Below, piece by piece: positions 1 to 64,000 of a stretch of 64,000 bases of DNA. A program made the translations under genes and the position numbers. This DNA comes from Escherichia phage EJP2: sequence record OQ411014.1. One strand, written 5' to 3'. The notes beneath the pieces were generated by a model, which was given only the letters and a program-made list of their open reading frames with translations, had not been told where the DNA came from and searched no databases. How positions within the stretch are numbered: the stretch's first letter is position 1; each line of letters starts with the position of its first letter.

Positions 1-42
1 GTACAGGATGTACTAACTCGTGACGCTTTCAAAATTCACAAT

Positions 43-447
43 ATGATGTTCAATATAAAAGAAGTCGTACAGTGCTTATTTTATTGTTCAAAGACTATGC
101 ATGACTTCTTTCATTCGGACATGTGTGATATGTTTGTGTGCACTGTAAATCGGGATGAGTCCTTTATTATGGGTATGCCAATGTCCGTGAATGCAGAGTA
201 CAATGAGTGCGTACTTCGTAATAACCCAGGTTCCTCACCACAACGCGATTTGCACGTGAAGAAGAATACGTACTGCATCAAGGGTGATGATATCGTTATA
301 ATGTTCTTGACAAAAGGTTTCATTCTTGATAACTTTACTGTCAAAGAGAGTTATCATGATTTCAGAGTTCAAGAAGATAATCCAACCGTTATGATCTATG
401 CATCTGATATAGAGAGTTTAGCGATGGATAATCCAGGAGTGATGTAG
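43..447 (+). CDS. hypothetical protein
   Basis: 134-aa ORF in the same orientation as the downstream gene block; no recognisable motif. Confidence 0.4.
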   Translation: MMFNIKEVVQCLFYCSKTMHDFFHSDMCDMFVCTVNRDESFIMGMPMSVNAEYNECVLRNNPGSSPQRDLHVKKNTYCIKGDDIVIMFLTKGFILDNFTVKESYHDFRVQEDNPTVMIYASDIESLAMDNPGVM

Positions 448-627
448 TGAAAAAGAAAAGCCAAACTAATGTACCGGATGTTCGTAACTTCGTACACAAA
501 CATATGGAAACATTCAGTAAAGCACAGACATTCGTTGACCGTAAAAAAGACCAACGCAATGGCAAAAGAAAACATAAAGGGCAAGACTGGTAAGTCTGCC
601 CTCTTTAATTAACAACGTGAGGTTATC

Positions 628-1524
628 ATGTTTCTGAATTTCAAAGAGTACAGCCTTAAAGAATACATTGAAATGTTCAGGGCGTTCTTTAAAGACCAAA
701 GTACAGTACTGCCCTTTGAATACTCAATTGATCGGGATTATGCCAGGACTCTTGGGTATATTATCATGCACGTAGGTGGCATGACGTTCTTGACTATTAA
801 AGATAATGGTCAGTTCTACGTTACTGAAGATGATAATATAACTTATAGTTACAATCCGAGTAAAAATTCTGAAAAAATCGTTACTCCACGTATAGACGTC
901 AATAAGTTCATTTGTCCTAAGACTCTAAAATCAGAAATCACTCACAAAGTTATAGTACTGAAGAATCGTACGCACGCTAATACCGGAAACTCTATAACTG
1001 TAATGGTCAAAGACAAATACGATTATACACGTTCAGCATATAAAAATAGTCCAATAAGTAATAAGTACAGTAGTGGAGTACATAAAACATTATGTATTGC
1101 ATCTAGAATGACTATTTCTGAATACTACGATGAAAGCGAAAGTACATGCATCCAAAGTTCTATTAATATTTGGAGTGATACTCTAGCGAATTGTTATAGT
1201 ATAACATTACATGAAAATCAAGGAAAATCTGTTGGTAAGATCGGTATGAGTACTTTGCATCCAAAAAACACCAGTCGCTTTACTATTGCAGATGATATTG
1301 TACAGTCTTTGCCTGATTTATCTTTGAGTCATCTCTTTAGTAATGAAGAAATTTATTTCAAATTACTATTGACACTAGAGCCTGAAGCGTGTAGACTATT
1401 CGAATTGATTCATACTGAAAGTATTGCACTTCTGAATGAAACAATAAATGACTGTACTCCATCGGAACGGAGTCCAGTACTGAGAGATGTAATAAGAAAC
1501 TTATCTATCAAGGAAGAGGGATAA
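628..1524 (+). CDS. hypothetical protein
   Basis: 298-aa ORF; ATG preceded by GAGG; no recognisable domain. Confidence 0.55.
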   Translation: MFLNFKEYSLKEYIEMFRAFFKDQSTVLPFEYSIDRDYARTLGYIIMHVGGMTFLTIKDNGQFYVTEDDNITYSYNPSKNSEKIVTPRIDVNKFICPKTLKSEITHKVIVLKNRTHANTGNSITVMVKDKYDYTRSAYKNSPISNKYSSGVHKTLCIASRMTISEYYDESESTCIQSSINIWSDTLANCYSITLHENQGKSVGKIGMSTLHPKNTSRFTIADDIVQSLPDLSLSHLFSNEEIYFKLLLTLEPEACRLFELIHTESIALLNETINDCTPSERSPVLRDVIRNLSIKEEG

Positions 1525-1525
1525 T

Positions 1526-1828
1526 ATGTATAAACTTGCGTTCAAGGATGGAATTGCAAAATACGCAACAATGGGCAATCGTCGAGTTCCAAGGAATGCT
1601 GAAACGATAACTCACCCAGATGGGACTACTATCTACATTGTTACTGCTACTAATGAACGAATGGCTACTGAACAGATAGTACTCCAAAGTAAGTTCGACC
1701 AGTCCAAAGTAAGTGCTCCGTACTTGCATTATGCGTACACACAGGAGATACTGGATATGGAGAACCCTGATATGTTCATGTTAGTACTGTTTGAATATGA
1801 CGAATGGCATAAACAAATTTTGTATTAA
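1526..1828 (+). CDS. hypothetical small protein
   Basis: 100-aa ORF starting 2 nt after the upstream stop. Confidence 0.5.
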   Translation: MYKLAFKDGIAKYATMGNRRVPRNAETITHPDGTTIYIVTATNERMATEQIVLQSKFDQSKVSAPYLHYAYTQEILDMENPDMFMLVLFEYDEWHKQILY

Positions 1829-1845
1829 CAATCCAAAAGATTTAC

Positions 1846-1874
1846 TTGACATTGTATCTGCACTTTGATATAAT
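1846..1874 (+). promoter_or_regulatory. sigma70-type consensus promoter (TTGACA-N17-TATAAT)
   Basis: TTGACA at 1846-1851 and TATAAT at 1869-1874, 32 nt upstream of the ATG at 1906. Confidence 0.6.
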
Positions 1875-1905
1875 AGATGCACTTTACTAATAAGAGGTTT
1901 TATAA

Positions 1906-2286
1906 ATGAGTACACCTTCCGCTATTCTAAAATCAATCACTGGCGTTCTACTAATTGAGAAGAACGGTGAAGACAAGTTAGTGTGTATTGAGGACTTACG
2001 TTCTTCCAAGCACTTCAGCATCGGTCAACTATTCAATGCCATTCGCGTACTAAACAACAAGACTGTTCAACAGTACGGTGCAAAGTGGCCTCGTTCTGAT
2101 GTAGGTACTGAATGTAGTAATGATTGGCTCGCACTGAAAGCAGCGTACAAGAATTCCAATTCAGATTATGAGTTCTTGATTGAAGTATGTAATCAACTAC
2201 AAGAAACAGTACCTGAAGTTGTTGAACGTGAAAAAGTACTGAAACAATTAGAGAAGTTTCGTCACGGTACTCTAGTACTAGAATAA
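1906..2286 (+). CDS. hypothetical protein
   Basis: 126-aa ORF with RBS AAGAGG upstream. Confidence 0.55.
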   Translation: MSTPSAILKSITGVLLIEKNGEDKLVCIEDLRSSKHFSIGQLFNAIRVLNNKTVQQYGAKWPRSDVGTECSNDWLALKAAYKNSNSDYEFLIEVCNQLQETVPEVVEREKVLKQLEKFRHGTLVLE

Positions 2287-2356
2287 TATAAAATCTTTTG
2301 TTATAAACTAATCAATTCAAATCAAAAAAAATTATACGGATATAAGGAATACTAAA

Positions 2357-4773: not shown

Positions 4774-5320
4774 TACGGATGGTTAGCTATCCGTATTTTA
4801 AATTTGAATGACCAGTACTACATACTGGTACGTTTTAACCCTGATTCACTCGAAAATGTAGAGGACAGTTGAGTACGCATTCAAGTACGTTCAGCAGAAG
4901 AAACCCGTTAGGTGTAGGCATAGTTTGTACCTCCCACGGCAATGTGGCTGATTAAACCATGAAGAGTAATACGATGACTCATGGCTTGCTTATGGCATGA
5001 TAGACATATAAGGATCGCTCCTTACCAAAATGTATAAGGGAATCTTATAAATTTTTGTAGGACTGATTAGAGGCTTACCCTTGATCCGTCCAAAATTTGA
5101 AGATACAGTACAGTACTGTTTATGTGGTAATGTATTGATGCGTGCTAAGACCACGACCGTTGCATAGAAACGCGATAGGAAGAAACAGGGCAACCCGCTT
5201 CCGTTCTTAATAGAAATTCGTAACATAAAATGATGACACATACCAGCGTCAAACTTTGTTCTTCCCTCCCTGTGGGGGGATGAAAATGAATCTACAAAAC
5301 CTCGTCAAATAATAATAAGA
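4774..5320 (+). ncRNA. candidate structured noncoding RNA, copy A (unknown class)
   Basis: 740-nt gap between + genes with its own promoter and no conserved reading frame; shares blocks with the locus at 58.7 kb (CACUCGAAAAUGUAGAGG, GAAACCCGU, CACGACCGUUG, AAACAGGGCAACCCG, ACAAACCUCGUCAA); stem GGAAG/CUUCC at 5178-5202 covaries with GCUGG/CCAGC in copy B. Confidence 0.45.
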
Positions 5321-5476: not shown

Positions 5477-5998
5477 ATGCCAGTGAAATATAAATCCCTT
5501 GATGGTGTTGTGAAGTACAAAGATCAAATGACTGAACAGGAATTACAAGAGTTCAGTGGGTACAAAATCGAGGGCAGTGCGGCACGTATTTCATACATTG
5601 AAGAGTACAAAGACGGAGATTTACTAGGGAAAATTATCCTTAGAATGACAAAAGCCCCAATCATATTTCGGGTAGTATACAAGGGATATAATGAAATTCG
5701 GTACAATACTGGAAGTGTTTCATCTAGATATTGCAGTAATGGTGATGTTTTTTGTGGTGAAATGCTGAGATATGATATGAATGGGAAGCTACAGGTTCGG
5801 GACTTTTTGAATCTAGGCAAGAACGTAACTGATGATATTGTTACTGAATTTGGTATCTCTGATATACTACAGCATGAATTTACAGAAGAAGAGTTATTCC
5901 GACTCTATATGAAATACGATTCAGGATTTAGATTCGTATCGGAATATAATAGAACTCCTGAACACTTCGATTCAGTACTGAAGGCGTGTTTGGAATAA
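5477..5998 (+). CDS. hypothetical protein
   Basis: 173-aa ORF. Confidence 0.55.
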   Translation: MPVKYKSLDGVVKYKDQMTEQELQEFSGYKIEGSAARISYIEEYKDGDLLGKIILRMTKAPIIFRVVYKGYNEIRYNTGSVSSRYCSNGDVFCGEMLRYDMNGKLQVRDFLNLGKNVTDDIVTEFGISDILQHEFTEEELFRLYMKYDSGFRFVSEYNRTPEHFDSVLKACLE

Positions 5999-6013
5999 TA
6001 GGATATACAATTC

Positions 6014-6532
6014 ATGGATGATAAAAAATCAAAGATGGATATACACTTTTCATCTAAAGCTCAAACTTGGAATACTCCAAGAGATTTATGGAATAAAATA
6101 AATGCAGTATGGAAGTTCACTCTAGATGCTGCGTGTTTAGAAAATAGTGCCTTGTGCGAAAAGTACTTCACTCCTGAAGACGATTCATTAGAACAGGACT
6201 GGGGTGATAACATAGTATGGCTTAACCCACCCTATAACGACCTCAAGACTTGGCTATCGAAGGCAGTACAGGAATATAAGAAAGGCTCTACAGTTGTCAT
6301 TCTGGTCCCTTCTAGGACGGATACAAAGGCATTCCAGGACTATGCTTCTAAAGAATGTTCGTGTATTTGTTTTATTAAGGGAAGACTCAAGTTCTTTGAT
6401 CCAGCTAGACCACCTGATGCGAGGGCAGACCCAGCACCATTCCCTAGCTGTTTGATAGTACTGGATGATGATCTTACACAAGAGAAAATCGATTTTCTAA
6501 AAACTCTAGGTCAGGTAATGAAGAATGTCTAA
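6014..6532 (+). CDS. DNA N6-adenine methyltransferase (phage Dam-type)
   Basis: NPPY motif (VWLNPPYNDLKTW) typical of amino-methyltransferases; size fits small phage Dam family. Confidence 0.6.
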   Translation: MDDKKSKMDIHFSSKAQTWNTPRDLWNKINAVWKFTLDAACLENSALCEKYFTPEDDSLEQDWGDNIVWLNPPYNDLKTWLSKAVQEYKKGSTVVILVPSRTDTKAFQDYASKECSCICFIKGRLKFFDPARPPDARADPAPFPSCLIVLDDDLTQEKIDFLKTLGQVMKNV

Positions 6533-7064
6533 ACGCTGTGTCTTTATGTTCGGCAGAATGAACCCGTGCCACCTCGGACACGGGAAAGTATTTGAAAAAG
6601 CACTACAACTAAAGGATAATGAAACTGATGTGAAGTTGTTCCTTAGTGCTTCGTTTGATCCTAAAAAGAATCCACTACCAAGAGAAGTTCGTCAGTACTA
6701 CATATCTGAGTTCTTCCCTGAAATAAAAGATTCTATACAAGATACAAACATAAACAATTTATTTGATATAATGAAATCACTTGATACTTATTATAGTGAT
6801 GTAATATTCGTAGGTGGTTCAGACAGGGCGAGTTCCTTCCAAGAACTACTACTGAAGTACAATAACAAACAGTACTCATTCGATTCTATCAGTACTGTAC
6901 TAGCTGGAACATCAAGAGAAGAATCTATGTTCAGTTCTACTCTAATGCGTAATGCAGTACAGAAGGACGATTTCAGTACTTTCAAGATATGTCTCCCTGG
7001 GGATAATGAATACTTGAAGTACGATATGTTCGCTGGTGTAAAGAAGTACATGAAAAATATTTGA
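6525..7064 (+). CDS. HxGH-family nucleotidyltransferase (cytidylyl/adenylyltransferase-like)
   Basis: N-terminal FGRMNPCHLGHG (GxFxPxHxGH) and C-terminal SSTLMR (ISSTxxR-like) motifs; overlaps the methyltransferase gene by 8 nt. Confidence 0.55.
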   Translation: MSKRCVFMFGRMNPCHLGHGKVFEKALQLKDNETDVKLFLSASFDPKKNPLPREVRQYYISEFFPEIKDSIQDTNINNLFDIMKSLDTYYSDVIFVGGSDRASSFQELLLKYNNKQYSFDSISTVLAGTSREESMFSSTLMRNAVQKDDFSTFKICLPGDNEYLKYDMFAGVKKYMKNI

Positions 7065-7678
7065 CACCTATCTATAGCCATGATACTATATGTACATGGC
7101 TATTTCTATATGAAGGTACTATAATGAAAGCAAAAGATCTGTTTGATATGGTTCACTCCAATCGTAAGCACCAATTGAATATTAATAGATCATTCAAGTT
7201 TGGTCACATGGATGTTACATATATAAAGTCATTTGGTTCTGATTTATTCTTGGTTGAGCTTGCTCAAGCTGGTAAATCTAAACGAGTATGTGAAATAATC
7301 TATTGTCCTCTCGAAGAAGAAAATGATACTTATGTTCCAGTTAAAGTATTTGATACTAAAGTCAAATTATCCAAGACTGAAATTGAGTTTGGTTTTCCGG
7401 TGGATGAAAAATTGAAGGATACAATTCGGTTTGTTCCGACTGATTTCAAAACTCCAGCATTTGATATAGACTTCAGTACTGAAGAATCGGCTTCACAAGC
7501 TATGTTCATTCATGATTTCGACCCCAAGAACTGTGAGTACCTAATGGCGGCTACACGTGCATTACAAGAAGTGTACCACCAGCCTGGATATGGGTACATG
7601 ATTATTTCGAGTACTTCTCCGGCATTACTGTGTGATGTACTAGGGATTGAAGTCCAAGTAGGAGTATACAATGCGTGA
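7061..7678 (+). CDS. paralogous early-gene family member
   Basis: C-terminal motif SASQAMFIHDFDP matching the shared E-x-x-F-Q/S-A-S/T-h-V-x-D/E-h-D module. Confidence 0.55.
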   Translation: MTPIYSHDTICTWLFLYEGTIMKAKDLFDMVHSNRKHQLNINRSFKFGHMDVTYIKSFGSDLFLVELAQAGKSKRVCEIIYCPLEEENDTYVPVKVFDTKVKLSKTEIEFGFPVDEKLKDTIRFVPTDFKTPAFDIDFSTEESASQAMFIHDFDPKNCEYLMAATRALQEVYHQPGYGYMIISSTSPALLCDVLGIEVQVGVYNA

Positions 7679-8222
7679 TAAAGTTCAACACATATTGAAT
7701 TGTATGCAGAAGAAAGTTCACGTTCAGAATGATGTACTTGATATGCAAGTATATACAATTCTATCTTCAGAAGATGGCGTGTTTAGTTCAACTATTCGAT
7801 GCCGCAATAAAAATAGCGGTTCCTTTACTATTATGCTAAGGAAGAAGACTGAAATGATTACTGCTCCTAGTTCAGTACTGGGACAAAACGACACATACAA
7901 TACAGTTTACACTTCTCTTGCAATGAAGATGGCAATCTTCTGTACGCATGGTAATCCCCTACACATTGTTCGTGGGGATAGTACAATAGGTGATGATGTC
8001 GTTCAGGATTTGAGTGACGAAGGTTTCTTTCGCTTGTTATTGGCAGTTGACCCGAAGTATAATATCGATATAGATGGGTACAAGCAGGTTCTTGAAATGA
8101 TTTATGCATTCGAAGAAGTAGTACCTGAAGATTGGACTATTGTTATTAGCTCACCATTAGATAATTTACATTCAATAGATGTTGATTCTATCTATTCAGT
8201 ACTGAAGGATGTCGTAGTATGA
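7671..8222 (+). CDS. hypothetical protein, possible family member
   Basis: DEGFFRLLLAVDP resembles the family motif; start overlaps the upstream gene. Confidence 0.5.
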   Translation: MRDKVQHILNCMQKKVHVQNDVLDMQVYTILSSEDGVFSSTIRCRNKNSGSFTIMLRKKTEMITAPSSVLGQNDTYNTVYTSLAMKMAIFCTHGNPLHIVRGDSTIGDDVVQDLSDEGFFRLLLAVDPKYNIDIDGYKQVLEMIYAFEEVVPEDWTIVISSPLDNLHSIDVDSIYSVLKDVVV

Positions 8223-8788
8223 ATGCCGCAGAGTTTGTTAGAGCACTTGTTGGTTTAGCTAAAGTGAAAACTTATAGAGGAAATATCACTAAATCAAATT
8301 CGCATTTTGTTCCACGTAATGGTCGTGAACATCTATTCGTTGATTCATTACTCATCAAGGGTATCGATGCATATGAAGAAATATACATTTCTATAGATAT
8401 GTGTGATGGATTCTTGAATTCCATTGCAGTTCATACAAGAAATAGATATACTCATTTCTCTATGTACAGAAAAACGGCATACACAGAGTATGATAAGTAC
8501 GCAATGGAAGAAACCTCCCCAGGGCGTTTCCTTATGCTTTTTCACAATGAAATTACCGAGCGTGATTTAATCATGAATCACAAGGGTGAATTTATTGTGC
8601 ACATGGACAATGAAAGTGAAGTGTTCAGTACTTTATTAGTACATAACTTCGATATAGAAAAGTACAGAGAAATTCATGAAACCTATAAGTGCATTGATGA
8701 ACTTAAAACTGACCTCTCATTCAGTACATATGATACTAATTGTGGTCTGAATTTCGCAGCACTATATCAAATTATATGGAAGGCATAA
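8219..8788 (+). CDS. paralogous early-gene family member
   Basis: motif ESEVFSTLLVHNFD; ATGA overlap with the upstream gene. Confidence 0.55.
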   Translation: MNAAEFVRALVGLAKVKTYRGNITKSNSHFVPRNGREHLFVDSLLIKGIDAYEEIYISIDMCDGFLNSIAVHTRNRYTHFSMYRKTAYTEYDKYAMEETSPGRFLMLFHNEITERDLIMNHKGEFIVHMDNESEVFSTLLVHNFDIEKYREIHETYKCIDELKTDLSFSTYDTNCGLNFAALYQIIWKA

Positions 8789-9309
8789 TGACTGCACTAA
8801 ATGATTTCATGACTCTCAGTACTGAAATAGTATCTTCTACAAAGGGAGAAATCACAATCCCCCGTGATGATGTATATATTATACTAACACCAGGAATAGC
8901 AGAGTCCATAAAAGTATACGAAAATAATGATTCTTTACAAGTACTGTACATGCCACAAGATTATCTTTTTGTAAATTCTGATTTTACTTTACATCAATTT
9001 CCTACGTATAGTAATTTTCAACAACGTTTCCCAAGTGATAAAACAAAAGAAATAAAATACGTACAGTACGATAATAGTTTTAAAAGTCGTACTCATTTTA
9101 TCGCTTTAGAAACTGAAGAAGATATATTCAATGCTATGATAGTACATTCATTTGATATAAACGCAGCACTAGAATTGATGAGTGTATTGACTGAAGTACC
9201 GGAAGATGTAACAGGTATTATTACTATAAGAACTAAGTACAATGAAGAATTGTTACTAAAGTGCAACAGTATGATGCGAGATTATATTAGTAATAAGGAA
9301 AACACATGA
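8788..9309 (+). CDS. paralogous early-gene family member
   Basis: start moved to the ATG overlapping the upstream TAA (N-terminus MTALNDF parallels MTVLNDF of the next gene); motif EEDIFNAMIVHSFD; close paralog of 9306-9836. Confidence 0.55.
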   Translation: MTALNDFMTLSTEIVSSTKGEITIPRDDVYIILTPGIAESIKVYENNDSLQVLYMPQDYLFVNSDFTLHQFPTYSNFQQRFPSDKTKEIKYVQYDNSFKSRTHFIALETEEDIFNAMIVHSFDINAALELMSVLTEVPEDVTGIITIRTKYNEELLLKCNSMMRDYISNKENT

Positions 9310-9836
9310 CAGTACTGAATGATTTTCTTAGAGATAGTAAGTACATTATTGATAATATTGCTGAAGAAATATCTATACCATCAATGGATGAGTTGATGAT
9401 GATATCAATGGACCCTGATGGTGGGTTGGTAAAAGTATATTACGATTTTGAACTGCACGTAATGTTCATGAAAAATCATTATGAACACGCTTCTGATATG
9501 TTGACACTTTATGATTTTGGGACGCATAAAAATTACCAACAACGTTTACCAGCAAACAAATCAAAGGATATGAAACTAAGTGTTTACAATTCTGCTGGTG
9601 TTACTATTCCGACTAAGATTTCTCTTGGTTCTGAAGAGGGAATCTTTTCTGCGGAATTAGTACATGATTCCAGTACTGAAGAAGCACTTGAAGTTATGCA
9701 AGTAATTTCTGAAGTACCTGACAGTACCAAAGGAATACTTACTATAAGAAATAAGTACAACGAACGATTACTTATAAAATGTAATGTGTTATTAGAACAA
9801 TATATACATGGAGTACTGAATGCAAATATGGTATAA
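9306..9836 (+). CDS. paralogous early-gene family member
   Basis: motif EEGIFSAELVHD; internal FGTHKNYQQRLPANKSK parallels FPTYSNFQQRFPSDKTK of the previous gene. Confidence 0.6.
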   Translation: MTVLNDFLRDSKYIIDNIAEEISIPSMDELMMISMDPDGGLVKVYYDFELHVMFMKNHYEHASDMLTLYDFGTHKNYQQRLPANKSKDMKLSVYNSAGVTIPTKISLGSEEGIFSAELVHDSSTEEALEVMQVISEVPDSTKGILTIRNKYNERLLIKCNVLLEQYIHGVLNANMV

Positions 9837-10113
9837 TGTAGTACAGAAGGATTGGGATGATAATGAAAAGACAGGGATGCGTTTCATTTCTGTTATCATT
9901 TCGAATGAAACTCGTTATGTTCTACGAGCGGATAAGAATGATGGCGTATGGGAATCATCTTTGTATCCAATGGGTTACAAATATTCTTTAGATGATGTTG
10001 CAAGTCTAGCTGATTCTATGATAGACTCAGTAAAGATTATGAAGTTCCTTGAACGTCCAGAGCTAACAACGGCTGATGATGTACAGGAATTTTTGGCGAC
10101 TTTACAAGGGTAA
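9820..10113 (+). CDS. hypothetical protein
   Basis: 97-aa ORF. Confidence 0.45.
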   Translation: MQIWYNVVQKDWDDNEKTGMRFISVIISNETRYVLRADKNDGVWESSLYPMGYKYSLDDVASLADSMIDSVKIMKFLERPELTTADDVQEFLATLQG

Positions 10114-10115
10114 TT

Positions 10116-10634
10116 ATGAAACTTTCTGACTTCATTGCACGCAAAGATTCGTTCAAAAATGGCGTTTTTCATCAAGTAGAAGGTACTGACTTTACATATA
10201 TCAGTACTAGTATTGGATTGGGAGAAGCATCGAGTATCGTATCTTTTTATACAAAAGAAACACTTGCTATATGTGATTTTGTATTTTCAACTAAACATTA
10301 TAATACCACAGACAATGCAATTATGTTCGATGCAAACTCAGTGAATGATGCTTGGTGTGTATATTTTTCTTATCCAAATACAAATGAAAATATAGTATTA
10401 TTCTTGGATGATTCAGAAGATAACGAGCCACCAGTACTGGTAGATATCTCATCAGAAGCGGATATCTTCACTAAAGCAGTAGCATTCGATATAAATTGTG
10501 ATGGTATTGAAGAGTACATTTCGATTTCCAAAGCAATCGAAAAAATTGCCAAGGATTTGGGATTACCGGAATTTACTCTAGAACTTCGTCACAATAAACT
10601 GAAGGAATTTCTTGAGATATTTGAACTATGCTAA
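10116..10634 (+). CDS. paralogous early-gene family member
   Basis: motif EADIFTKAVAFDIN. Confidence 0.55.
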   Translation: MKLSDFIARKDSFKNGVFHQVEGTDFTYISTSIGLGEASSIVSFYTKETLAICDFVFSTKHYNTTDNAIMFDANSVNDAWCVYFSYPNTNENIVLFLDDSEDNEPPVLVDISSEADIFTKAVAFDINCDGIEEYISISKAIEKIAKDLGLPEFTLELRHNKLKEFLEIFELC

Positions 10635-10873
10635 TAATTGACAATTTAGACATACCTGGTGAATTCGAAGTACTCGAAGGGATTAGTATGAGTACGTTCG
10701 TAATAAAAAGTACTGAAGCGTGGGTGAAAAAACACTTGACTGAATTAGGGTTATCCGATACACTACACTTCTTTAGTTACAGTACTGGAGATTTAGTTTT
10801 AGAATCGACAAGAGCGAGGATTACGAGTTTAAGTTCTAAGCGATTTTATGTTGAATTTATGGAAGGAGAATGA
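10628..10873 (+). CDS. hypothetical small protein
   Basis: 81-aa ORF overlapping both neighbours by a few nt. Confidence 0.45.
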   Translation: MLIIDNLDIPGEFEVLEGISMSTFVIKSTEAWVKKHLTELGLSDTLHFFSYSTGDLVLESTRARITSLSSKRFYVEFMEGE

Positions 10874-11442: not shown

Positions 11443-11493
11443 TTAGTACTGTATATGTATACACCTTTACGATAAAGTCTTAAATATCTGAAG

Positions 11494-11724
11494 GTGTATA
11501 TTGTCATAGGAGGAAAAGTTATGAAATATTCATTGATTCGTTTAGGATTATTTGTTACAGTAGTCTTAATGGTTGTGATTGGTTCAGTACTGACACAGTT
11601 ATACCCTGCGTTTATTTTACTCGCTGGGATTTTTGGTTCAGTACTGATTGGGCTGGTGGGTTGGGCTTTGCAGCTTACCATCGATGCGGAATTAGAAAAG
11701 AGGATTAAAGATAAAGATGAATGA
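11494..11724 (+). CDS. small membrane protein
   Basis: 76 aa, two hydrophobic helices, RBS GGAGG. Confidence 0.55.
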   Translation: MYIVIGGKVMKYSLIRLGLFVTVVLMVVIGSVLTQLYPAFILLAGIFGSVLIGLVGWALQLTIDAELEKRIKDKDE

Positions 11725-11876
11725 TAAAGGTGAAGAGGAAGTCTTCTGTACTGCGTGCAATCTGTACGTACAACCTGAATACAGTTCGTACTCATGTATT
11801 TCACAGTACGGTTCATCAGTGTTCTGTAAAGAACTCTGTCCTATTTGTTATAAACAATTTCGGGAATTTTTAGTCG

Positions 11877-12566
11877 ATGCAGACATTTGATAATTCAATC
11901 AACATCAGTACTGAACTATTAAAAGTACTAAAAGTGATTTATAGTTTCAGTACTGAAGAGTTGTTGAAAGTACTACCAGAGAGTGTATCTAAACGAGAAA
12001 ACGAATATAAGTGCGTTTTTGATATACAACAAGATGTACAATTTCAAGTTCAAATTAACTACAAAGACGATTTGAATTATCGCAGTACTAATATTTCCAT
12101 TCTTGATGTGCGTCGCGGCGTAACAATGAATGGGACAATTCCATGTATCTTAGCTTTAGGTACATACGCAGCGAATAAATCAGAACCATCTATCATTTGT
12201 AACTACTCCCAAAGTAAAGAATTTATGGTTCGATATCATTCATTGACCGAAAATCCTGCTTATACAAATGTCAGTACTGATGGCAATTCACTTAGAATGA
12301 ATCGAATCAAGTACTACGAGATTGATGATATTTTTGATGAAGGTGCAGTATTCCAACATTCAATTATGCATGAGTTCGACCCTAATAGTATTCTGTTATT
12401 ACAGAAGATGGTCACTGTTGGGGATTACATCAGTACTAAATGTAATTCCAATAAAATCCTTGTCTCGGCTGATGAAGATAAGTTAGATGGTCTGTTGGAT
12501 TCACTTCTAAAGATTGATGTTGTTAGTAAATTCATTTCCTTATATGAAGGTACAGAATGGTCATAG
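11877..12566 (+). CDS. paralogous early-gene family member
   Basis: motif EGAVFQHSIMHEFDP. Confidence 0.55.
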   Translation: MQTFDNSINISTELLKVLKVIYSFSTEELLKVLPESVSKRENEYKCVFDIQQDVQFQVQINYKDDLNYRSTNISILDVRRGVTMNGTIPCILALGTYAANKSEPSIICNYSQSKEFMVRYHSLTENPAYTNVSTDGNSLRMNRIKYYEIDDIFDEGAVFQHSIMHEFDPNSILLLQKMVTVGDYISTKCNSNKILVSADEDKLDGLLDSLLKIDVVSKFISLYEGTEWS

Positions 12567-14515: not shown

Positions 14516-14545
14516 GCAGTACTGCGATTGTAGTACTGCTTTTTT
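14516..14545 (+). terminator. intrinsic terminator with AGTACT-containing arms
   Basis: GCAGTACT...AGTACTGC stem followed by a T6 run. Confidence 0.6.
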
Positions 14546-19263: not shown

Positions 19264-19293
19264 AGTACTGCTATTGTGGCAGTACTTTTTTTG
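19264..19293 (+). terminator. intrinsic terminator with AGTACT-containing arms
   Basis: AGTACTGC...GCAGTACT stem followed by a T7 run. Confidence 0.6.
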
Positions 19294-23856: not shown

Positions 23857-23863
23857 AAAATGC

Positions 23864-52187: not shown

Positions 52188-54941
52188 ATGTCATCTAAAA
52201 GAGTAATAGGTTCAGTTGAGTTTTTAAGTAACTTAGCTGTAAATGGGAAATACGCAATGCGTTCCTTTAATGGTGTCAATCCAGATGCCAATACTGGTAT
52301 AATCACTTATCCATTTTATACCAGAGAAGAAGTTCAGAAGATTCTCGATATACTCCCTGTTTCACGTATAGGTGAAATGGACTATCTACCACCGAACGTA
52401 AGTGGTTCCTTTAGTGGAGCTACTTCATTCTCGAATGATCGCAGAGTTCAGCCATGTATTATTGAAGATGATGGTACAGCCGTAATTATTCGCCCTGGTA
52501 CGAATGGTAGTCAGTTTGATTTTTATTATGCTTACATCCGTAACGTCAGAAATATCCCAACTCTAACACAAAGTGATATTGTTCAGACGAATACCAGATA
52601 TCACCCATCATATCTTACTAGTACTCAAAAGATTGAACAATTTTACGGTACTGATGGATATGATCTTCTTTGGTACAGAGTTTCTGACTCAGTTAATAGT
52701 TCAAACTATTTTGCAATTACATTAACTAACGGTTCCTTTAACGTAGTAGGTCACCAACATGCTCTTATTCCACAAACATCTATGCCTAATTTCACACCAG
52801 CATATGCTCATATCGTGAATGGTTCAGTATACATGTGGGGCTATGACAGTACTTTAGGTTCAGGTAGAGCATTGAAGTTATACACTATCCCAACTAGTTC
52901 GTTGCGTTCTGGTGTTACTACTGGTTTAACTGCTGTCACTGGATTTAATGGAAAAACTATCAACGGTAATGCTTATACAGCAGCCAGTACTGCTAGGATT
53001 TATGATACATATGCAAGTACTACCAGTACTGCTGATTGCTTAATTCAATACACGTCTAACATGTATTCTCCTGAATATCACGACTACGCCATCTCCAATG
53101 CAATGGCGGCTGGTAATGCTGATAATACACAGATTCGTTTCACTATGTTCCCTACATATCGTTACGGTTCTGCGTATGGTTTTAGTGGTATATTCATGTA
53201 CGCAATTAGTTTAGTCTATAATATCAGTACTAAAACATTTACGTACGATACTACATCTTTAGGTAAAATTGTGGTGAATGCTACACTAAATGGTTCTACA
53301 ATGACCTATACAGAAACTGCTAACCCATATTTGGTTGATGCAACTTCATGGCGTGGTTTTGGTGCAAGTCTAGGTAACTGTGGAACAATCTGTCAAGCAG
53401 GTGATGGTTTCATGGTGAGTACTCGCTCTCGTTGGGCAAGTTCTGCTCCTTACGGTGTCAGTACTTCTAAGATTAATAACTTTACTTCTCAATTCGATTC
53501 TATTAAAATGACTGGTAGAAGTGTTACTGCAAATACTCAACTATTTGCTAACCCAATCTACGGTTCTGCAATTGGTGAGAACTTGATGGGTCCACGTCTG
53601 TTAAGTAAAACTCGTATGATTCTTGCATGTTCAGGTACATACGATGGTGTATCCAACGCAAGCTATGACAATACTGTAGTTGCGGACTTCGGTACTGATT
53701 CGAACTTCTCATACAAGTCAATGACTCAAGGTACACTTACTGGGTATGCACCACAAACGTATCGTAAATTCGCTAATAATGACAACTTCAGACTATCAGA
53801 ATTAGTAACACTAATGGACAGTACTGGTAATGTTCAAGCAAGTAGTACTGCATTCATCGAGAACGTTAAGTACACTGGTGGGATTGGTATTAACCCTGAT
53901 ACACTTGAATACACTGGCAGTACTGTTAATATGTCCAATGCAGTTATCCAATCACTTAAACAAGGTATTGCAACTTCTGCTGGTATTCCATTGAATACAA
54001 GTTTGCTTACAGTGTATTACATTCCTGATACATCATATTGCAATCACCAAGCAGTACTAATGGTTCGTAATCCTGATAACACTGGCGTTGTAGTACTAGC
54101 TGAAATGAATTTAACTACAAGTACTTCTGGAAGTACAATTACTGTTACTGGTGGTTCTGTAATAAGAACTTTCGTTCAGAACAGACCAAATATTACTTCA
54201 GTAAATGGTGGGAACTACGCTCGTAACGTTGGTGTTTGTGCTGGTAAATTCAGTGGTTTTAATTACCTTAGTGTTCACTCAGCGAATAACTTTGGTGTTC
54301 CTGGTGATGCAAGGTCTTATTCGTTCTTTGCAAAAGTTAAGGGTGGTGCTATAGTATCACAGAGAATCGATGAGTCCTATTATTCACAGACATATGGCAG
54401 GACTGGTGGTTTCCTACCAGGGAAAGGTTTCGGTTATTATGATAACTCAGTGAGTGATTACCAGACCAAATCCGTGTTCCAACTCTTCGGTACTACTGAA
54501 GCACAGATGGATGCACTAATTGCTGGTACTGGAACATCAACACCTGTTGTTGTTATGTCTCAAGAAGTTCCTGAAGGTTTTAGTGTTTACTTTACACAAG
54601 AACTACCAGTATTCTTAGGTGGTATGTACGATAAGCTACCAATCCAGACAGTTGATTTGAGAACTATCAAAGCTGATCCATCCAATACTACTTTCTATAT
54701 CTACGTATCAATGGATAGAAGTAAAGGTGAAGCATCATACGTTATCAGTACTGCACTCTTGGATGAAACTCTAACCAGAGCATTCATTGGTACTATTGTG
54801 ACTATTGATGCAGGTATTGACCGGATTGATGCAGAGAAGGTAACACGCTTCTTGACTTACAGACCAAGTACTTACAAGAGGGGTTCTGCAATCCCTGCGA
54901 GTACTGGTGTTCCATCTGGGACTGGTTCACGCTGGCATTAA
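52188..54941 (+). CDS. tail fibre / receptor-binding-like structural protein
   Basis: 917 aa; shares VDL(K/R)TIKA(N/D)P...TTF(H/Y)IYV and C-terminal motifs with 48882-51581. Confidence 0.6.
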   Translation: MSSKRVIGSVEFLSNLAVNGKYAMRSFNGVNPDANTGIITYPFYTREEVQKILDILPVSRIGEMDYLPPNVSGSFSGATSFSNDRRVQPCIIEDDGTAVIIRPGTNGSQFDFYYAYIRNVRNIPTLTQSDIVQTNTRYHPSYLTSTQKIEQFYGTDGYDLLWYRVSDSVNSSNYFAITLTNGSFNVVGHQHALIPQTSMPNFTPAYAHIVNGSVYMWGYDSTLGSGRALKLYTIPTSSLRSGVTTGLTAVTGFNGKTINGNAYTAASTARIYDTYASTTSTADCLIQYTSNMYSPEYHDYAISNAMAAGNADNTQIRFTMFPTYRYGSAYGFSGIFMYAISLVYNISTKTFTYDTTSLGKIVVNATLNGSTMTYTETANPYLVDATSWRGFGASLGNCGTICQAGDGFMVSTRSRWASSAPYGVSTSKINNFTSQFDSIKMTGRSVTANTQLFANPIYGSAIGENLMGPRLLSKTRMILACSGTYDGVSNASYDNTVVADFGTDSNFSYKSMTQGTLTGYAPQTYRKFANNDNFRLSELVTLMDSTGNVQASSTAFIENVKYTGGIGINPDTLEYTGSTVNMSNAVIQSLKQGIATSAGIPLNTSLLTVYYIPDTSYCNHQAVLMVRNPDNTGVVVLAEMNLTTSTSGSTITVTGGSVIRTFVQNRPNITSVNGGNYARNVGVCAGKFSGFNYLSVHSANNFGVPGDARSYSFFAKVKGGAIVSQRIDESYYSQTYGRTGGFLPGKGFGYYDNSVSDYQTKSVFQLFGTTEAQMDALIAGTGTSTPVVVMSQEVPEGFSVYFTQELPVFLGGMYDKLPIQTVDLRTIKADPSNTTFYIYVSMDRSKGEASYVISTALLDETLTRAFIGTIVTIDAGIDRIDAEKVTRFLTYRPSTYKRGSAIPASTGVPSGTGSRWH

Positions 54942-54954
54942 TTTAAACTCAATT

Positions 54955-54983
54955 GAGGTTGTCTATTGACAGCCTCTTTTTTT
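54955..54983 (+). terminator. intrinsic terminator
   Basis: GAGGTTGTC-TATT-GACAGCCTC followed by a T7 run. Confidence 0.65.
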
Positions 54984-54994
54984 CTTGATATAAT
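54966..54994 (+). promoter_or_regulatory. sigma70-type promoter overlapping the terminator
   Basis: TTGACA 54966-54971 lies in the terminator stem; TGaTATAAT ends at 54994. Confidence 0.5.
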
Positions 54995-55021
54995 GTTTAG
55001 ACTCATGGAAGGAGGAAAATT

Positions 55022-55333
55022 ATGCAATACAGAACACCAGTACTGATCAATCGATACAAAAGTAAAGACTTTGATGTTTACATTGGTCGTGGGACAAAAT
55101 GGGGAAACCCGTTCCCAATCGATGAAGCATGTGGTCAAACTCGCCTAATCGTTATTGAAATGTACAGACACCAAATGTATGAATGGCTAGAAAATGGAAC
55201 CATCACTGTTCAGGATATTTTGGATTTATCGGGAAAAACCATTGCATGTTCTTGTGCACCAAAGGCATGTCATGGAGATATAATCATAGAGGTATTCAAT
55301 GAAATAGTGAGTATGATGAATGCAGGAACATAA
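55022..55333 (+). CDS. DUF4326-like protein
   Basis: YIGRGTKWGNPF motif near the N-terminus, as I recall for DUF4326 proteins. Confidence 0.45.
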   Translation: MQYRTPVLINRYKSKDFDVYIGRGTKWGNPFPIDEACGQTRLIVIEMYRHQMYEWLENGTITVQDILDLSGKTIACSCAPKACHGDIIIEVFNEIVSMMNAGT

Positions 55334-55721
55334 AATATATGACATCATTAAAACTCTTAAAACTTGTAAGAGAGTAACATTATCTGAAAAAGTTTACTGC
55401 GGTTTAAATGATAAAAAGTGTATCATGTTCGATTGTATAGATGATGGTGAATCCAGCATTAGTATTGCTAGTCCTAAGAATCCTAATGGTGATTTTATCT
55501 TCTGTACAGTTACTGATGAACTTGAATTTGTACTCGTCAAGAGTGATGGTGCACAATCTGAAATCTTAGACTTGAGTACTGAAGATAGATTCTTTCAACG
55601 AAGTTTACTCTTTGACTTATCATTAACCTATGATGAGTATCAATCAGTACTTCATAATTTCAACAAATTTTATAACGGACTAATCAGTACTGTTATAATC
55701 TATTCAACCGAGGTCATATAA
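55320..55721 (+). CDS. hypothetical protein
   Basis: 133-aa ORF. Confidence 0.5.
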   Translation: MQEHKIYDIIKTLKTCKRVTLSEKVYCGLNDKKCIMFDCIDDGESSISIASPKNPNGDFIFCTVTDELEFVLVKSDGAQSEILDLSTEDRFFQRSLLFDLSLTYDEYQSVLHNFNKFYNGLISTVIIYSTEVI

Positions 55722-58707: not shown

Positions 58708-59235
58708 TACGGATAACACCTATGTTGAATGTCTTTGATAAACAGAACCTGATCCACTCGAAAATGTAGAGGGCAGATGAGTAGAACATTCACTACGAAG
58801 TGCAAATGAAACCCGTCAGTAATAAAGCGTAAGTGCGGTCATACAAACGAGACGTAAGACACACGCGACACGGCAAAGCGGCACTATAAAAGCGATAAGA
58901 AAACATATTCGCTCTTGATAGACTTATGAGGCATACTCACCCAGTTGAAAGGGAGTCTCTTTACGGAGAGACAGCAGTATTTGTTGCTGAATTAGCAAGT
59001 ACTGTAAGCGTGTGAGGAACACGACCGTTGTATGCAGACTGTAGTAGCTGGAAACAGGACAACCCGCCAGCGTTGCTACTTTTATTTGTACGGGAAAGAT
59101 CCGTCCAAAAAGTAGTGAATCTACAAATTCAGATTGGTAAGACTACCAGCGTCAGGATATTCCTGATTTTTTTTCGGCCCTCCCTTGTGGGGGGATGGAA
59201 TTGGATCAACAAACCTCGTCAAGTATAATATGAAT
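58708..59235 (+). ncRNA. candidate structured noncoding RNA, copy B (unknown class)
   Basis: 688-nt intergenic gap with promoter; shares sequence blocks with locus A and the covarying stem GCUGG/CCAGC at 59047-59071; the only ORF (59028-59228) starts with TTG and its frame is not conserved in copy A. Confidence 0.45.
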
Positions 59236-59354: not shown

Positions 59355-59765
59355 ATGAGTCAGTTAGAACCAATTGTAGGATCTTATAATATTTTCTTCA
59401 AAGATACCAATGTAACACCAAGCAGTTCATATAACCAAAATACACGTGTAAGTACTTACACAATTGAGCATTTAAGTACTGGCAAGAATTTCAGTACTGA
59501 ATACGGGAAGTACGTCCAGAAGAACTCCGATTGTTTTCAGCTATTTCGTAACTCCCCACGTCAAGATATTTTACTAATCACAAACGAAGTGGAGTTCCGT
59601 CAAAGATCTCTTGATTTCCCTAATGCAGTTCATTATACTATTAGTGATATCGACTTCATCAAAGTACTTGTTCATTACGACGAAGTATCAAAGGTAAGTA
59701 CTTTTGAGGATTTGTCTTTTGATGAAGTAATTGCACTCAAGGATAAACTATATGAAAGCAAGTGA
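59355..59765 (+). CDS. hypothetical protein
   Basis: 136-aa ORF with RBS AGGAG. Confidence 0.55.
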   Translation: MSQLEPIVGSYNIFFKDTNVTPSSSYNQNTRVSTYTIEHLSTGKNFSTEYGKYVQKNSDCFQLFRNSPRQDILLITNEVEFRQRSLDFPNAVHYTISDIDFIKVLVHYDEVSKVSTFEDLSFDEVIALKDKLYESK

Positions 59766-62020: not shown

Positions 62021-62056
62021 TATTATATCAATACTACTCTATAAGGAGATAATAAA

Positions 62057-62281: not shown

Positions 62282-62516
62282 GATTTATGAAGAATACCGA
62301 GACGTGTGGCGTAATGCTGATTACAGTATAGTACGCCGCAAACGTCTACTGGAATTATTTGATAAGGGTCTTGTAATTGTGGTGAACACGAAGCATTGTC
62401 CACAACTAAAACAGGATGCGGATTTGAAAAAGTTGCTCAAGGATGGTAAACTAGAACAGTTCAATATCAGAGAGAGTAAGAATTTCAAGAGGACATATCT
62501 AAGAAGGAAGCCATGA
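62253..62516 (+). CDS. hypothetical small protein
   Basis: 87-aa ORF. Confidence 0.4.
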   Translation: MRISIIEINEIYEEYRDVWRNADYSIVRRKRLLELFDKGLVIVVNTKHCPQLKQDADLKKLLKDGKLEQFNIRESKNFKRTYLRRKP

Positions 62517-62517
62517 T

Positions 62518-63072
62518 ATGGCAAAACTACAATTTACATATGCAGCAATGAATTGCGGTAAAAGTACTGCACTATTACAAACAGCTTATAACCTAAGTAA
62601 TATTGGAAAGAAAGTACAATACTACACATCAGCACTTGATGACCGATATGGTTATGGTAAAATTACTTCCAGAATTGGTCTGTCCGAAGAAGCTATGGTC
62701 ATTCCTAAAGATGACTTTTCAGTACTGAATGATATCATTACTGATTACAATGAAGGTACTGAACCTTTTGCAATTTTCGTTGATGAATGTCAGTTCTTGA
62801 ATACAAATCAGATTGACAAATTGGCGTATATCGCTGATAATTGCAATGTAGCCGTATATTGTTATGGACTCAGGACTGATTACAGTGGTGTACTCTTTGA
62901 GGGTTCTAAACGTCTCTTTGAGTTAGCTGATGACTTACATGAGCTAAGTAACAACTGTCAATGTGGTGCTAAGGCTACGATGACAAAGCGACTAAATGAC
63001 AGTACTGAACAAGTACTGATTGGTGATAATGACATGTATCAATGCGTATGCAGAGCGTGTCACAAGAAATAA
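62518..63072 (+). CDS. tk: thymidine kinase
   Basis: P-loop MNCGKST and C-terminal zinc-binding cysteines (CQCGAKAT...CVCRAC). Confidence 0.8.
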   Translation: MAKLQFTYAAMNCGKSTALLQTAYNLSNIGKKVQYYTSALDDRYGYGKITSRIGLSEEAMVIPKDDFSVLNDIITDYNEGTEPFAIFVDECQFLNTNQIDKLAYIADNCNVAVYCYGLRTDYSGVLFEGSKRLFELADDLHELSNNCQCGAKATMTKRLNDSTEQVLIGDNDMYQCVCRACHKK

Positions 63073-63081
63073 GGACAACAT

Positions 63082-63330
63082 ATGATTAGTTACAAAGACA
63101 TTATCTTTGCAGTACTGAAGCGTTTCAAAAATGAAGTACTTGATGAGTTTGATGACCGTACTCTGTTCAAACTATTAGCGTACTGTACTGCTGCATTTGT
63201 AGTATTCTCTTTTGTACCAGGGTGGGCTATTGTTGTTGCACTTCTGATTGGTTGGGTTACTTACATCGTTGACCGTTCACAAGACGCAAAGACTTGGGCT
63301 GAACATGAAAAAGATGTTGACGAAGAATAA
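63082..63330 (+). CDS. small membrane protein
   Basis: 82 aa with a central hydrophobic helix. Confidence 0.5.
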   Translation: MISYKDIIFAVLKRFKNEVLDEFDDRTLFKLLAYCTAAFVVFSFVPGWAIVVALLIGWVTYIVDRSQDAKTWAEHEKDVDEE

Positions 63331-63350
63331 AAAATAACATACACTTAAAA

Positions 63351-63376
63351 GGTGCTACAGATGTAGTGCCTTTTTT
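63351..63376 (+). terminator. intrinsic terminator
   Basis: GGTGCTA...TAGTGCC stem (two G-U pairs) followed by a T6 run. Confidence 0.55.
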
Positions 63377-63390
63377 CTTAGGAGAGTACT

Positions 63391-63870
63391 ATGTGGTTAT
63401 TTCTATTTTGTTTGATAATGGCATTTGCAACAGTGCAATTGTTCTTTGAGATGGTACATTCTGGTGTATTCGGAGATAGATTGTACTTCAAGGTGAAGTT
63501 TATTGGATTTGATGTAAACACTGAGCGTTCACAGGTGATCCGTACATTAATAATGATGTATCATTCTGGTAAGTACAAAATTGAACTGAACAAGCAGACA
63601 TTATATTTCATCCAAGAAGGCGAGAACAGTACTGAATACATTGTGGAGTGCTTACATGTAAGTGATGTGAATTCATATAAGTACGGACGTTTTGCTGGTA
63701 TTACTAGTACTACAATGGATAACCGAGGCATAATTGATTTCGACACTCGGATGATGTTGTATGATATTGTTGCTGAAGCAAAAGAGCCTGAACCACCAGC
63801 AGATGTTCCAACTTACCAGTACTCAAACTTGAAAGGTTTCTTTGCCCCTAAACAGGATATCGAATTATGA
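63391..63870 (+). CDS. hypothetical protein with N-terminal hydrophobic segment
   Basis: 159-aa ORF with RBS GGAGAG. Confidence 0.5.
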   Translation: MWLFLFCLIMAFATVQLFFEMVHSGVFGDRLYFKVKFIGFDVNTERSQVIRTLIMMYHSGKYKIELNKQTLYFIQEGENSTEYIVECLHVSDVNSYKYGRFAGITSTTMDNRGIIDFDTRMMLYDIVAEAKEPEPPADVPTYQYSNLKGFFAPKQDIEL

Positions 63871-64000
63871 TTATTGAATATGTAATTGCAATGTGTACTG
63901 CGAGTGCTGTAGCACCGTTGGGTTCTTATATTCTGTACCAGAATCGTGAAGTTATTTCGCGTAAACTGGGTAAACTCTTCGGTACTAAAAAGCTGATTGA

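Follow-up and report, generated by a model that had tools for sequence, protein, structure and literature searches.

Why should a phage genome be filled with copies of one short palindrome? The question is raised by a stretch of 64,000 nucleotides from Escherichia phage EJP2 (sequence record OQ411014.1), here called the window and analysed over its full length, in which the hexamer AGTACT occurs 283 times (4.42 per kb, about one copy per 224-226 bp) and ranks first among the 4096 hexamers. The signature is real, it is common to the whole sampled clade of jumbo phages around EJP2, and we found no published description of it. We give somewhat better than even odds (a probability of roughly 0.55) to AGTACT being a selected signal in double-stranded DNA that is read by a phage factor.

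Excess and anatomy of AGTACT in the window

Base composition predicts 21 copies of AGTACT in the window, and Markov models of order 1, 2 and 3 predict 24, 63 and 130, the higher-order values being inflated by sub-words of AGTACT itself. The excess over base composition is ~13-fold. Within called open reading frames (ORFs), which hold 92% of all copies, 261 were counted, compared with 65 ± 7 after synonymous codons were shuffled within genes (z = 28) and 33 ± 6 under codon permutation (z = 41). The top octamer, CAGTACTG, is present in 102 copies where fewer than one is expected; 96 of these lie in ORFs, against 10 under the synonymous shuffle and 1.7 under codon permutation. Among decamers CAGTACTGAA and TTCAGTACTG lead, and TTCAGTACTGAA accounts for 10 of the 283 copies of AGTACT. 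When all hexamers were set against a null, AGTACT reached z = 30.7, the remaining strong positive words were its sub-words or flanks, and no unrelated word exceeded z = 9.5. Composition, dinucleotide, Markov and codon-aware models thus all fall short as a source of the excess.

The word is used in every codon frame. In genes on the plus strand 126 copies are read as AGT ACT, 94 as xxA GTA CTx and 30 as xAG TAC Txx, and the density is 4.46 per kb in coding and 4.0 per kb in non-coding DNA. The encoded dipeptides are correspondingly frequent in the window (Ser-Thr 1.87-fold, Val-Leu 1.40-fold and Gln-Tyr 1.68-fold over expectation), with 130 of the 178 Ser-Thr dipeptides encoded as AGTACT. The dipeptide excess is an effect of AGTACT and not its cause, and the preference for AGT, ACT and GTA codons exists largely because of AGTACT itself. 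An amino-acid preference was rejected as the explanation on these grounds: equal density outside genes, use of three frames and a dipeptide excess that is a consequence.

Copies are spread across the whole window, with 36, 40, 33, 31, 31, 30, 40 and 42 in successive 8-kb segments and a widest AGTACT-free gap of 899 bp (23397-24296). The densest gene is the following.

11877..12566, plus strand: gene with 8 copies of AGTACT in 690 bp (11.6 per kb)

The motif has a GTAC core with A/T directly outside it, and in the lineage of the window it extends to CAGTACTG and, more weakly, to TTCAGTACTGAA. Around the 690 GTAC tetramers of the window the next outward base is A/T in 59% of half-sites and the second base outward is C/G in 38%. 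The flanks of AGTACT are mirror images of each other, with C at -1 (56%) and G at +1 (54%), T at -3/-4 and A at +3/+4; C-1 and G+1 occur together (odds ratio 2.6, p = 1e-4), and conservation ends ~6 bp out on each side. Mirror-image flanks that are coupled in this way point to a two-fold symmetric reader of double-stranded DNA rather than to a signal at the RNA or protein level. Variants that differ from AGTACT at one position are enriched 1.69-fold over the null for the outer positions, 1.56-fold for the inner positions and 1.07-fold for G2/C5; no class is depleted, and AATACT/AGTATT are the least enriched (0.99).

Two hairpins that resemble terminators carry AGTACT on both arms. Such hairpins form because AGTACT is self-complementary, so that one copy can pair with another.

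14516..14545, plus strand: terminator-like hairpin, GCAGTACTGC, loop GATT, GTAGTACTGC, with TTTTTT directly after the stem (-16 kcal/mol); AGTACT at 14518 and 14532; between ORFs 13772-14506 and 14557-15111
19264..19293, plus strand: terminator-like hairpin, AGTACTGCTA, loop TTG, TGGCAGTACT, TTTTTTT (-18 kcal/mol); AGTACT at 19264 and 19281; between ORFs 18897-19253 and 19302-19544

Other palindromes show the opposite trend. Absent from the window are 26 of the 64 palindromic hexamers, including AAGCTT, CTGCAG, GGATCC, GGTACC, GTCGAC and GAGCTC, and palindromes other than AGTACT average 0.46 of expectation. A z value below -2 was obtained for 25 palindromes, compared with 7% of non-palindromes. 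Restriction-site avoidance in phages thus concerns the same class of words in the same genome, but AGTACT, which is the ScaI site, has the opposite sign and is alone among palindromes in being driven up (13-fold). At the level of 4-bp palindromes GTAC is the only one strongly over-represented (3.2), and GATC is depleted (0.38).

These results bear on an initial annotation of the same DNA. Its claim of strong over-representation proved stronger than stated (283 against 21); its estimate of a 5-10-fold excess holds for the codon-aware nulls but is too low for base composition. Two of its local counts were reproduced (5 copies at 10.0-11.0 kb, 3 at 48.9-50.0 kb), but the first 3 kb contain 11 copies rather than 7. 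It was right in seeing copies in each of the three frames and in judging codon or amino-acid preference an insufficient explanation: codon-aware nulls leave the excess in place, and non-coding DNA shows it equally. The k-mer count and the positional survey that it had proposed show AGTACT above both the Markov-3 and the codon-shuffled expectation and spread at 30-42 copies per 8 kb. The AGTACT-armed hairpins that it had reported are real, and the contrast it drew with restriction-site avoidance is evident in the missing palindromes.

Distribution, turnover and spacing in the phage clade

The window is syntenic with the Rak2/GAP32/121Q/BF clade of jumbo myoviruses, its nearest relative being Erwinia phage Hallingskeid (4% megablast cover, 68% ligase identity). 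We sampled Hallingskeid, GAP32, CBB, Munch, BF, pEa_SNUABM_50, XaC1, 121Q, TH47, RaK2, fHe-Yen9-04 and eight IMG/VR contigs (loci L001-L022, L026, L029-L034, L036, L038 and L059). Every member is enriched, at 1.8-4.4 copies per kb or 5-13 times expectation, and AGTACT is the top hexamer in all samples but four short or low-density contigs. In the pooled 858 kb there are 2740 copies where 286 would be expected. The excess is seen in each sampled phage whose ligase is at least 55% identical to that of the window, and it was not seen in sampled phages with a ligase ~31% identical. Two distant jumbo relatives also lack it: PA5oct has 1 copy where 8.4 are expected and XacN1 has 0 where 6.3 are expected. 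A 50-kb sample of E. coli K-12 contains 3 copies (0.06 per kb) against 11.6 expected. AGTACT is therefore under-represented outside the clade, and its rarity in relatives and host indicates that the clade has reversed the sign of a word that they tend to avoid. Hosts of the AGTACT-rich phages include Erwinia, Cronobacter, Pectobacterium, Salmonella, Klebsiella, Serratia, Yersinia, Escherichia and Xanthomonas, and this range across Enterobacterales and Xanthomonas points to a cause encoded by the phage and not by the host. Full-text literature searches returned no report of AGTACT or GTAC enrichment, or of GCGC absence, in these phages.

The preferred flank varies with lineage. C is found at -1 in 0.55-0.58 of sites in the window and Hallingskeid, 0.42-0.49 in 121Q, TH47 and RaK2, 0.35 in GAP32 and CBB and 0.27 in BF, Yen9, Munch and XaC1, where A stands at ~0.4; G is the rarest flank at -1 in every lineage (0.02-0.13). 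These differences suggest that the outer specificity of the proposed reader has evolved. As a separate observation, GTTC/GAAC, which differ from GTAC by one central transversion, are at ~1.7-2.2 times expectation in clade phages, with equal frames for GTTC in the window (147/133/129). The rise was compared in the window, L002 and L005 against PA5oct (L027), and is not clear in PA5oct.

A second word sets the clade apart. GCGC is entirely absent, both from the window (77 expected) and from the 858 kb of clade DNA (814 expected), and is at normal levels in PA5oct, XacN1, the phages with ~31% ligase identity and E. coli. The 50-kb E. coli sample has 6.8 GCGC per kb and 0.06 AGTACT per kb, compared with 0 and 4.4 per kb in the window, so that the two words are near-perfect inverse discriminators of phage and host DNA. 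That GCGC is missing from phages whose hosts belong to many genera suggests that the phages encode a nuclease directed at GCGC, or that some equally universal agent selects against it. Among A/T-only words, TTAA stands at 0.21 of expectation in the window, 0.13 in Hallingskeid and ~0.7 in GAP32, BF and XaC1, and the most under-represented hexamers of the window contain TTAA or TpA (TATTTA, ATTAAA, AATTAA, TTTAAA).

Comparison of relatives showed that individual sites are both constrained and replaceable. In pairs ~83% identical, 60-78% of AGTACT sites are conserved compared with 38-49% for control hexamers. Synonymous change at third positions is 2.3-4.2 times slower inside AGTACT than in the same codons elsewhere (ACT 12% versus 28.5%, GTA 11% versus 30%, AGT 3.4% versus 14%), with p-values of 1e-4 to 1e-8 that are somewhat overstated, as each pair was counted both ways. 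Pre-sites one synonymous change away from AGTACT correspond to the full word in the sister phage in 53-57% of cases, compared with 23-30% for the same codon changes elsewhere. When changes between GAP32 and CBB were polarised by parsimony with BF as outgroup, AGTACT was lost at 17% per branch against 33% expected for a neutral hexamer, which is weak evidence. Between subclades, only 12-29% of sites are homologous in most pairs of codon-aligned orthologues (44% for GAP32-BF), and in genes common to six phages 80 of 118 AGTACT columns are private to one phage. About three quarters of the sites have moved within the clade and the density is nevertheless kept, so the sites are neither a relic nor a fixed set but are continually regenerated. 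A relic of an ancestral burst was rejected for the same reason.

Relatives differ at AGTACT sites by substitution, with indels accounting for 3.6% at these sites compared with 3.1% at random hexamers, and spread by 6-bp insertion or by a mobile palindromic element was rejected. Repetitive extragenic palindromes or miniature inverted-repeat transposable elements (REP/MITE) would have a mostly intergenic conserved unit of more than ~20 bp; here conservation is confined to ±6 bp and 92% of copies are in ORFs. Genes that are themselves mobile gave mixed results: an HNH endonuclease gene of CBB that is absent from GAP32 (L029 11252-11860) has 0 AGTACT in 609 bp where ~2.5 are expected, and two homing-endonuclease genes of RaK2 (L031 18149-19882 and 38039-39748) have normal densities of 2.9-3.5 per kb. 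These may be mobile genes of different ages.

Sites are also more evenly spaced than expected by chance. Inter-site distances vary less than under random placement in 17 of 17 loci, with a coefficient of variation of 0.81 in the window (z = -3.2) and 0.856 when pooled (n = 1935 spacings). Gaps longer than three times the mean occur at 0.5-0.74 of expectation, and very short spacings are also deficient; in the all-pairs correlation, values of 0.66-0.9 at distances below ~150 bp give way to 1.00 at longer ones, and counts per gene are under-dispersed (0.74). Neither helical nor nucleosome-like periodicity was detected, 3 bp being the sole period. Since heterogeneity and mutational processes clump sites, the even spacing indicates that density itself is selected, and it favours selection over biased repair without proving it. 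Together with synonymous constraint, the pairing of pre-sites with full sites and turnover at kept density, it supports the suggestion of the initial annotation that AGTACT is selected for; its proposal to look for the excess in related genomes was answered by the pooled clade count.

DNA uptake sequences (the uptake signal sequence, USS, of Haemophilus and the DNA uptake sequence, DUS, of Neisseria) resemble AGTACT in being frequent short words that occur in all frames, distort peptides, form terminators as inverted pairs and are kept up by a process acting on DNA and not on protein. Karlin et al. in 1996 reportedly found USS to be evenly spaced. Uptake sequences are, however, asymmetric 9-12-mers that depend on a competence receptor and recombination, whereas AGTACT is a perfectly palindromic hexamer (or octamer), 4-5 times denser, in a lytic phage that has no uptake step.

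Candidate readers and competing explanations

We infer that a two-fold symmetric, dimeric protein encoded by the phage would read AGTACT in double-stranded DNA, and that natural selection would hold the sites at a density of about one per 230-500 bp and keep long gaps few. Single sites would drift, and new ones would be fixed where protein constraints permit. The candidate reader or writer is the product of the following gene, in which case AGTACT sites may form a dense set of methyl marks that identify DNA of the phage as self. The lack of GCGC would complement this, in that phage DNA would escape a GCGC-directed nuclease able to shred host DNA. This methyl-mark version is the one that we prefer, but it is unproven and we hold it tentatively, as a possibility rather than a probability.

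6014..6532, plus strand: gene for a Dam-family N6-adenine DNA methyltransferase of 172 aa (PF05869, E = 1.4e-28)

The protein matches TIGR01712 below the equivalog cut-off, and its C-terminal ~45 aa are unmatched. Full-length homologues are present in 71 phage records, those sampled all being clade members; the other phages listed match at residues ~8-126 only and not over the last ~45. The gene is syntenic in all annotated relatives, and its product is the sole DNA-modifying enzyme found in every AGTACT-bearing phage. No solved structure was found for any relative. GATC is probably not its protected target, as GATC is depleted to 0.38; over-representation of GTAC and under-representation of GATC fit a GTAC-type target for this universal enzyme without showing it. 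Pfam scans of 30 ORFs of the window detected no sequence-specific DNA-binding protein. A cellular parallel is Dam/GATC with MutH and SeqA, in which a palindrome that recurs about every 240 bp is methylated and marks strand or self; the clade, too, has a Dam-family enzyme. GATC is, however, near random frequency in E. coli, where it needed no enrichment, and depleted in the clade, where no MutH or SeqA homologue was seen.

The other methyltransferases form a mosaic, with the Dam family universal, C5-cytosine and N6_N4 enzymes patchy and Mom confined to the RaK2 group. RaK2, GAP32, CBB, the 121Q group and Hallingskeid have a C5-methyltransferase. BF lacks the gene at the syntenic position, and none was detected in the Yen9, Munch or XaC1 group; these three groups and BF keep 2.6-3.9 AGTACT per kb. 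Its absence at that position in BF led us to reject the enzyme as what underlies the trait. It was likewise rejected as the source of the C/G extension: the correlation with C at -1 held in ~11 phages but fails in contig 3300031417_000002, where the gene is present and C at -1 is 0.27. The N6_N4 methyltransferase, considered as a possible ScaI-methylase-like enzyme, was rejected as the general cause, as it occurs only in the GAP32/CBB/BF/Yen9/Kaldavass/XbC2 subclade and is absent at the syntenic position of the window. Mom-family modification was rejected because it is restricted to the RaK2 group. In its published description (PMC3622015), RaK2 is reported to be resistant to methylation-sensitive enzymes and to carry a cytosine methylation.

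Several points weigh against a selected signal, and against the methyl mark in particular. Hundreds of core genes are as universal in the clade as the Dam-family methyltransferase, our literature search found no methylome for clade phages, and a mark needs a reader that benefits from density, of which to our knowledge none is known in this clade. The connection between GCGC absence and a nuclease is one that we purely infer. Part of the short-range deficit in spacing could be avoidance of hairpins, as two copies of AGTACT pair. In the GAP32/CBB/BF comparison, moreover, gains of AGTACT from one-off neighbours were at about background (11 of 448) and losses (40) exceeded gains; this is weak evidence, as the numbers are small and parsimony may miscount parallel gains as losses.

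The chief alternative, which we consider rather unlikely, is a by-product of repair of the kind proposed for highly iterated palindrome 1 (HIP1) of cyanobacteria. Methylation-dependent or biased repair, similar to mismatch or very-short-patch repair, would turn near-cognates into AGTACT and restore damaged copies, giving a molecular drive without function; Elhai's model for HIP1 (GCGATCGC) explains its abundance by methylation-dependent biased repair (PMC4390886). HIP1 is, by analogy, the closest match to AGTACT in anatomy. Both are short palindromes tens to hundreds-fold above expectation in genes (all frames) and between them, with palindromic extensions (here CAGTACTG and TTCAGTACTGAA), co-occurring orphan DNA methyltransferases and an unsettled function. 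In HIP1, one-off deviations favour the first and last positions; for AGTACT the outer variants rank highest, but the inner ones are raised as well. They differ in that HIP1 is a G+C-rich octamer of a cell at ~1 per kb and AGTACT an A+T-rich hexamer with a GTAC core, in a virus, at ~4 per kb; a C5-methyltransferase is dispensable for the AGTACT trait; and sites of AGTACT are evenly spaced, while for HIP1 we found no spacing test in the literature. A repair drive would account for the high level of outer-position variants and for the low level of AATACT/AGTATT, the expected commonest decay products, as if these were repaired back. Conservation of sites and synonymous constraint are as compatible with drive as with selection. 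Under drive, however, spacing should be random or clumped, and every locus shows under-dispersion and a 150-bp exclusion zone. No class of neighbours is depleted, and the background-level conversion given above showed no preference for transitions, in a comparison of low power and with biased parsimony. The C5-methyltransferase needed for T:G repair is also missing or undetected in the four groups noted above, and no Vsr- or MutH-like gene was seen in a search that was not exhaustive.

AGTACT may instead be an architectural or topological site preferred by a DNA-condensing protein or by a type II topoisomerase of the phage, which we regard as improbable. With dense and even sites, a 350-kb chromosome would be easier to replicate, to untangle and to spool round the inner body of the capsid. 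Type II topoisomerases cut with a 4-bp stagger and have dyad-symmetric preferences, and the symmetric core with graded flanks would suit such an enzyme; one site per ~150-250 bp with an exclusion zone resembles one site per unit of coverage. RaK2 encodes a gp39/gp52 topoisomerase II, and virions of the clade package an inner body, 'DNA condensation' proteins and a topoisomerase II subunit (PMC7247149). Sequence-specific binding is known for none of these proteins, though, and the spacing lacks any periodicity except 3 bp. The distant relatives PA5oct (287 kb) and XacN1 (385 kb) under-represent AGTACT, so genome size alone does not call for it.

It is very unlikely that AGTACT acts as Chi does for RecBCD or AddAB. 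Like Chi, it is an over-represented word that could mark self DNA for a nuclease: a helicase-nuclease would degrade linear DNA until it met AGTACT, so that phage ends and replication intermediates were protected and host DNA was digested. The large contrast in frequency between phage and host would follow. Selection for short maximal gaps would too, provided that each degradation event removes DNA as far as the next site. Genes for a RecB-family PD-(D/E)XK exonuclease and for several helicases are found in the clade, and absence of GCGC fits a cutter that makes entry points only in host DNA. Known Chi sites, however, are asymmetric, orientation-dependent and co-oriented with replication, at ~1 per 4.5 kb in E. 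coli, whereas AGTACT is ~20 times denser (1 per 0.23 kb) and is its own reverse complement, so that no orientation is possible. As the hosts include Xanthomonas, whose RecBCD recognises a different Chi, the nuclease would have to be encoded by the phage.

Even less credit is due to the host nucleoid-occlusion factor SlmA, which phage DNA would titrate or activate through AGTACT and so control division of the host cell. The SlmA-binding sequence (SBS) GTGAGTACTCAC has AGTACT as its central six bases, with the consensus and its tolerances taken from PMC3020112; like the phage word it is a palindrome, it is read by a dimeric helix-turn-helix protein in the hosts of most clade members, and many phages block FtsZ. 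Binding requires G1, T2, A4 and G5 of the 12-bp pattern GTRAGYRCTYAC (PMC3020112), and only one of the 283 sites in the window matches in full, with none in the other loci.

59448..59459, no strand assigned: sole full match to the SlmA pattern in the window, GTAAGTACTTAC, which fits GTRAGYRCTYAC (pattern from PMC3020112)

The outer determinants (G1, T2, purine 3) occur at 45 half-sites of enterobacterial phages against 92 expected, and the consensus base G at -1 is the rarest flank in every lineage, phage sites having C or A next to the core and lacking the outer GT/AC. Xanthomonas phage XaC1 has the same density of AGTACT, no SlmA homologue was found in these phages, and ~50 SBS per E. coli genome compare with an extrapolated ~1000-1500 AGTACT per phage genome. 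SlmA-type flanks on AGTACT are thus at about half of expectation in enterobacterial clade phages and at expectation in XaC1; the phages may, if anything, be avoiding true SlmA sites.

An artefact of composition, codon or amino-acid usage or word avoidance, a mobile palindromic element and an RNA-level signal are together scarcely credible: AGT, ACT and GTA codons are favoured and nearly all genes lie on one strand, so that strand alone cannot decide, but the favoured codons are mostly a consequence of AGTACT, codon-aware nulls fail by z = 28-41 with equal density outside genes, sites differ by substitution with conservation ending ~6 bp out, and a perfect palindrome with mirror-image flanks is not expected of an RNA signal.

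Neighbouring features and meaning for the clade

Other features of the window were noted in the course of the analysis. Each genome has two or more paralogous copies of a conserved non-coding element of ~500 nt.

4803-5310, plus strand: first copy of the ~500-nt element
58726-59226, plus strand: second copy of the ~500-nt element

Relatives carry it at L002 15153-15656, L004 15302-15798, L003 15547-16050, L005 13717-14265, L029 15863-16335, L036 12300-12786 and L032 31363-31823. The first copy is the best-conserved DNA of its region, with 77-93% identity to relatives where proteins have 30-70%, and is preceded by an extended -10 promoter (TGaTATAAT). The predicted consensus fold has long-range helices with 78 pairs, 23 of them with compensatory changes. 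The element matches no Rfam family and no tRNA and is unannotated in most records; it probably represents a large structured RNA of these phages that has not been described before.

Positions 5477-13716 hold ~15 back-to-back ORFs of 170-230 aa, many with overlapping stop and start codons, and similar runs are found in every relative. Their Pfam matches are the Dam-family methyltransferase and a CTP_transf_like nucleotidyltransferase; three others that were tested gave none. A conserved protein of 173 aa encoded upstream of the methyltransferase has no family match and is 27-39% identical between phages. At 54941-55721, between the gene for a 917-aa structural protein and an RlaP-type nucleotidyltransferase, the window has two small ORFs where CBB (L036 2967-7620) has eight genes, including Thg1 and the N6_N4 methyltransferase.

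Phage T4 offers a functional analogy only: its enzymes tell phage from host DNA during shut-off and breakdown by means of hydroxymethylcytosine, a modified base at every cytosine. The AGTACT clade would have to use sequence words instead, as no hydroxymethylcytosine pathway is reported for it (PMC3622015; PMC5259590). It is conceivable, though we think it doubtful, that these phages carry no genome-wide modified base and that the chromosome is written in a two-word code of self and non-self, free of GCGC and saturated with evenly spaced AGTACT at ~3-4 per kb. If this were true, phage enzymes could destroy or ignore host DNA and act on phage DNA by sequence words alone. It would be a new strategy of host takeover, strong enough to reshape the codons and dipeptides of a 350-kb genome.

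About 60 sequenced jumbo phages carry the signature, which had gone unremarked, and several of them are candidates for phage therapy or biocontrol. It provides a cheap experimental handle on how a phage without hydroxymethylcytosine or wholesale base replacement distinguishes, protects or organises a 350-kb chromosome, and a tractable viral counterpart to the long-unsolved problem of HIP1 in cyanobacteria. Signals at the DNA level can bend protein sequence, which is relevant to codon-based host prediction, to phage recoding and synthesis and to k-mer classification.

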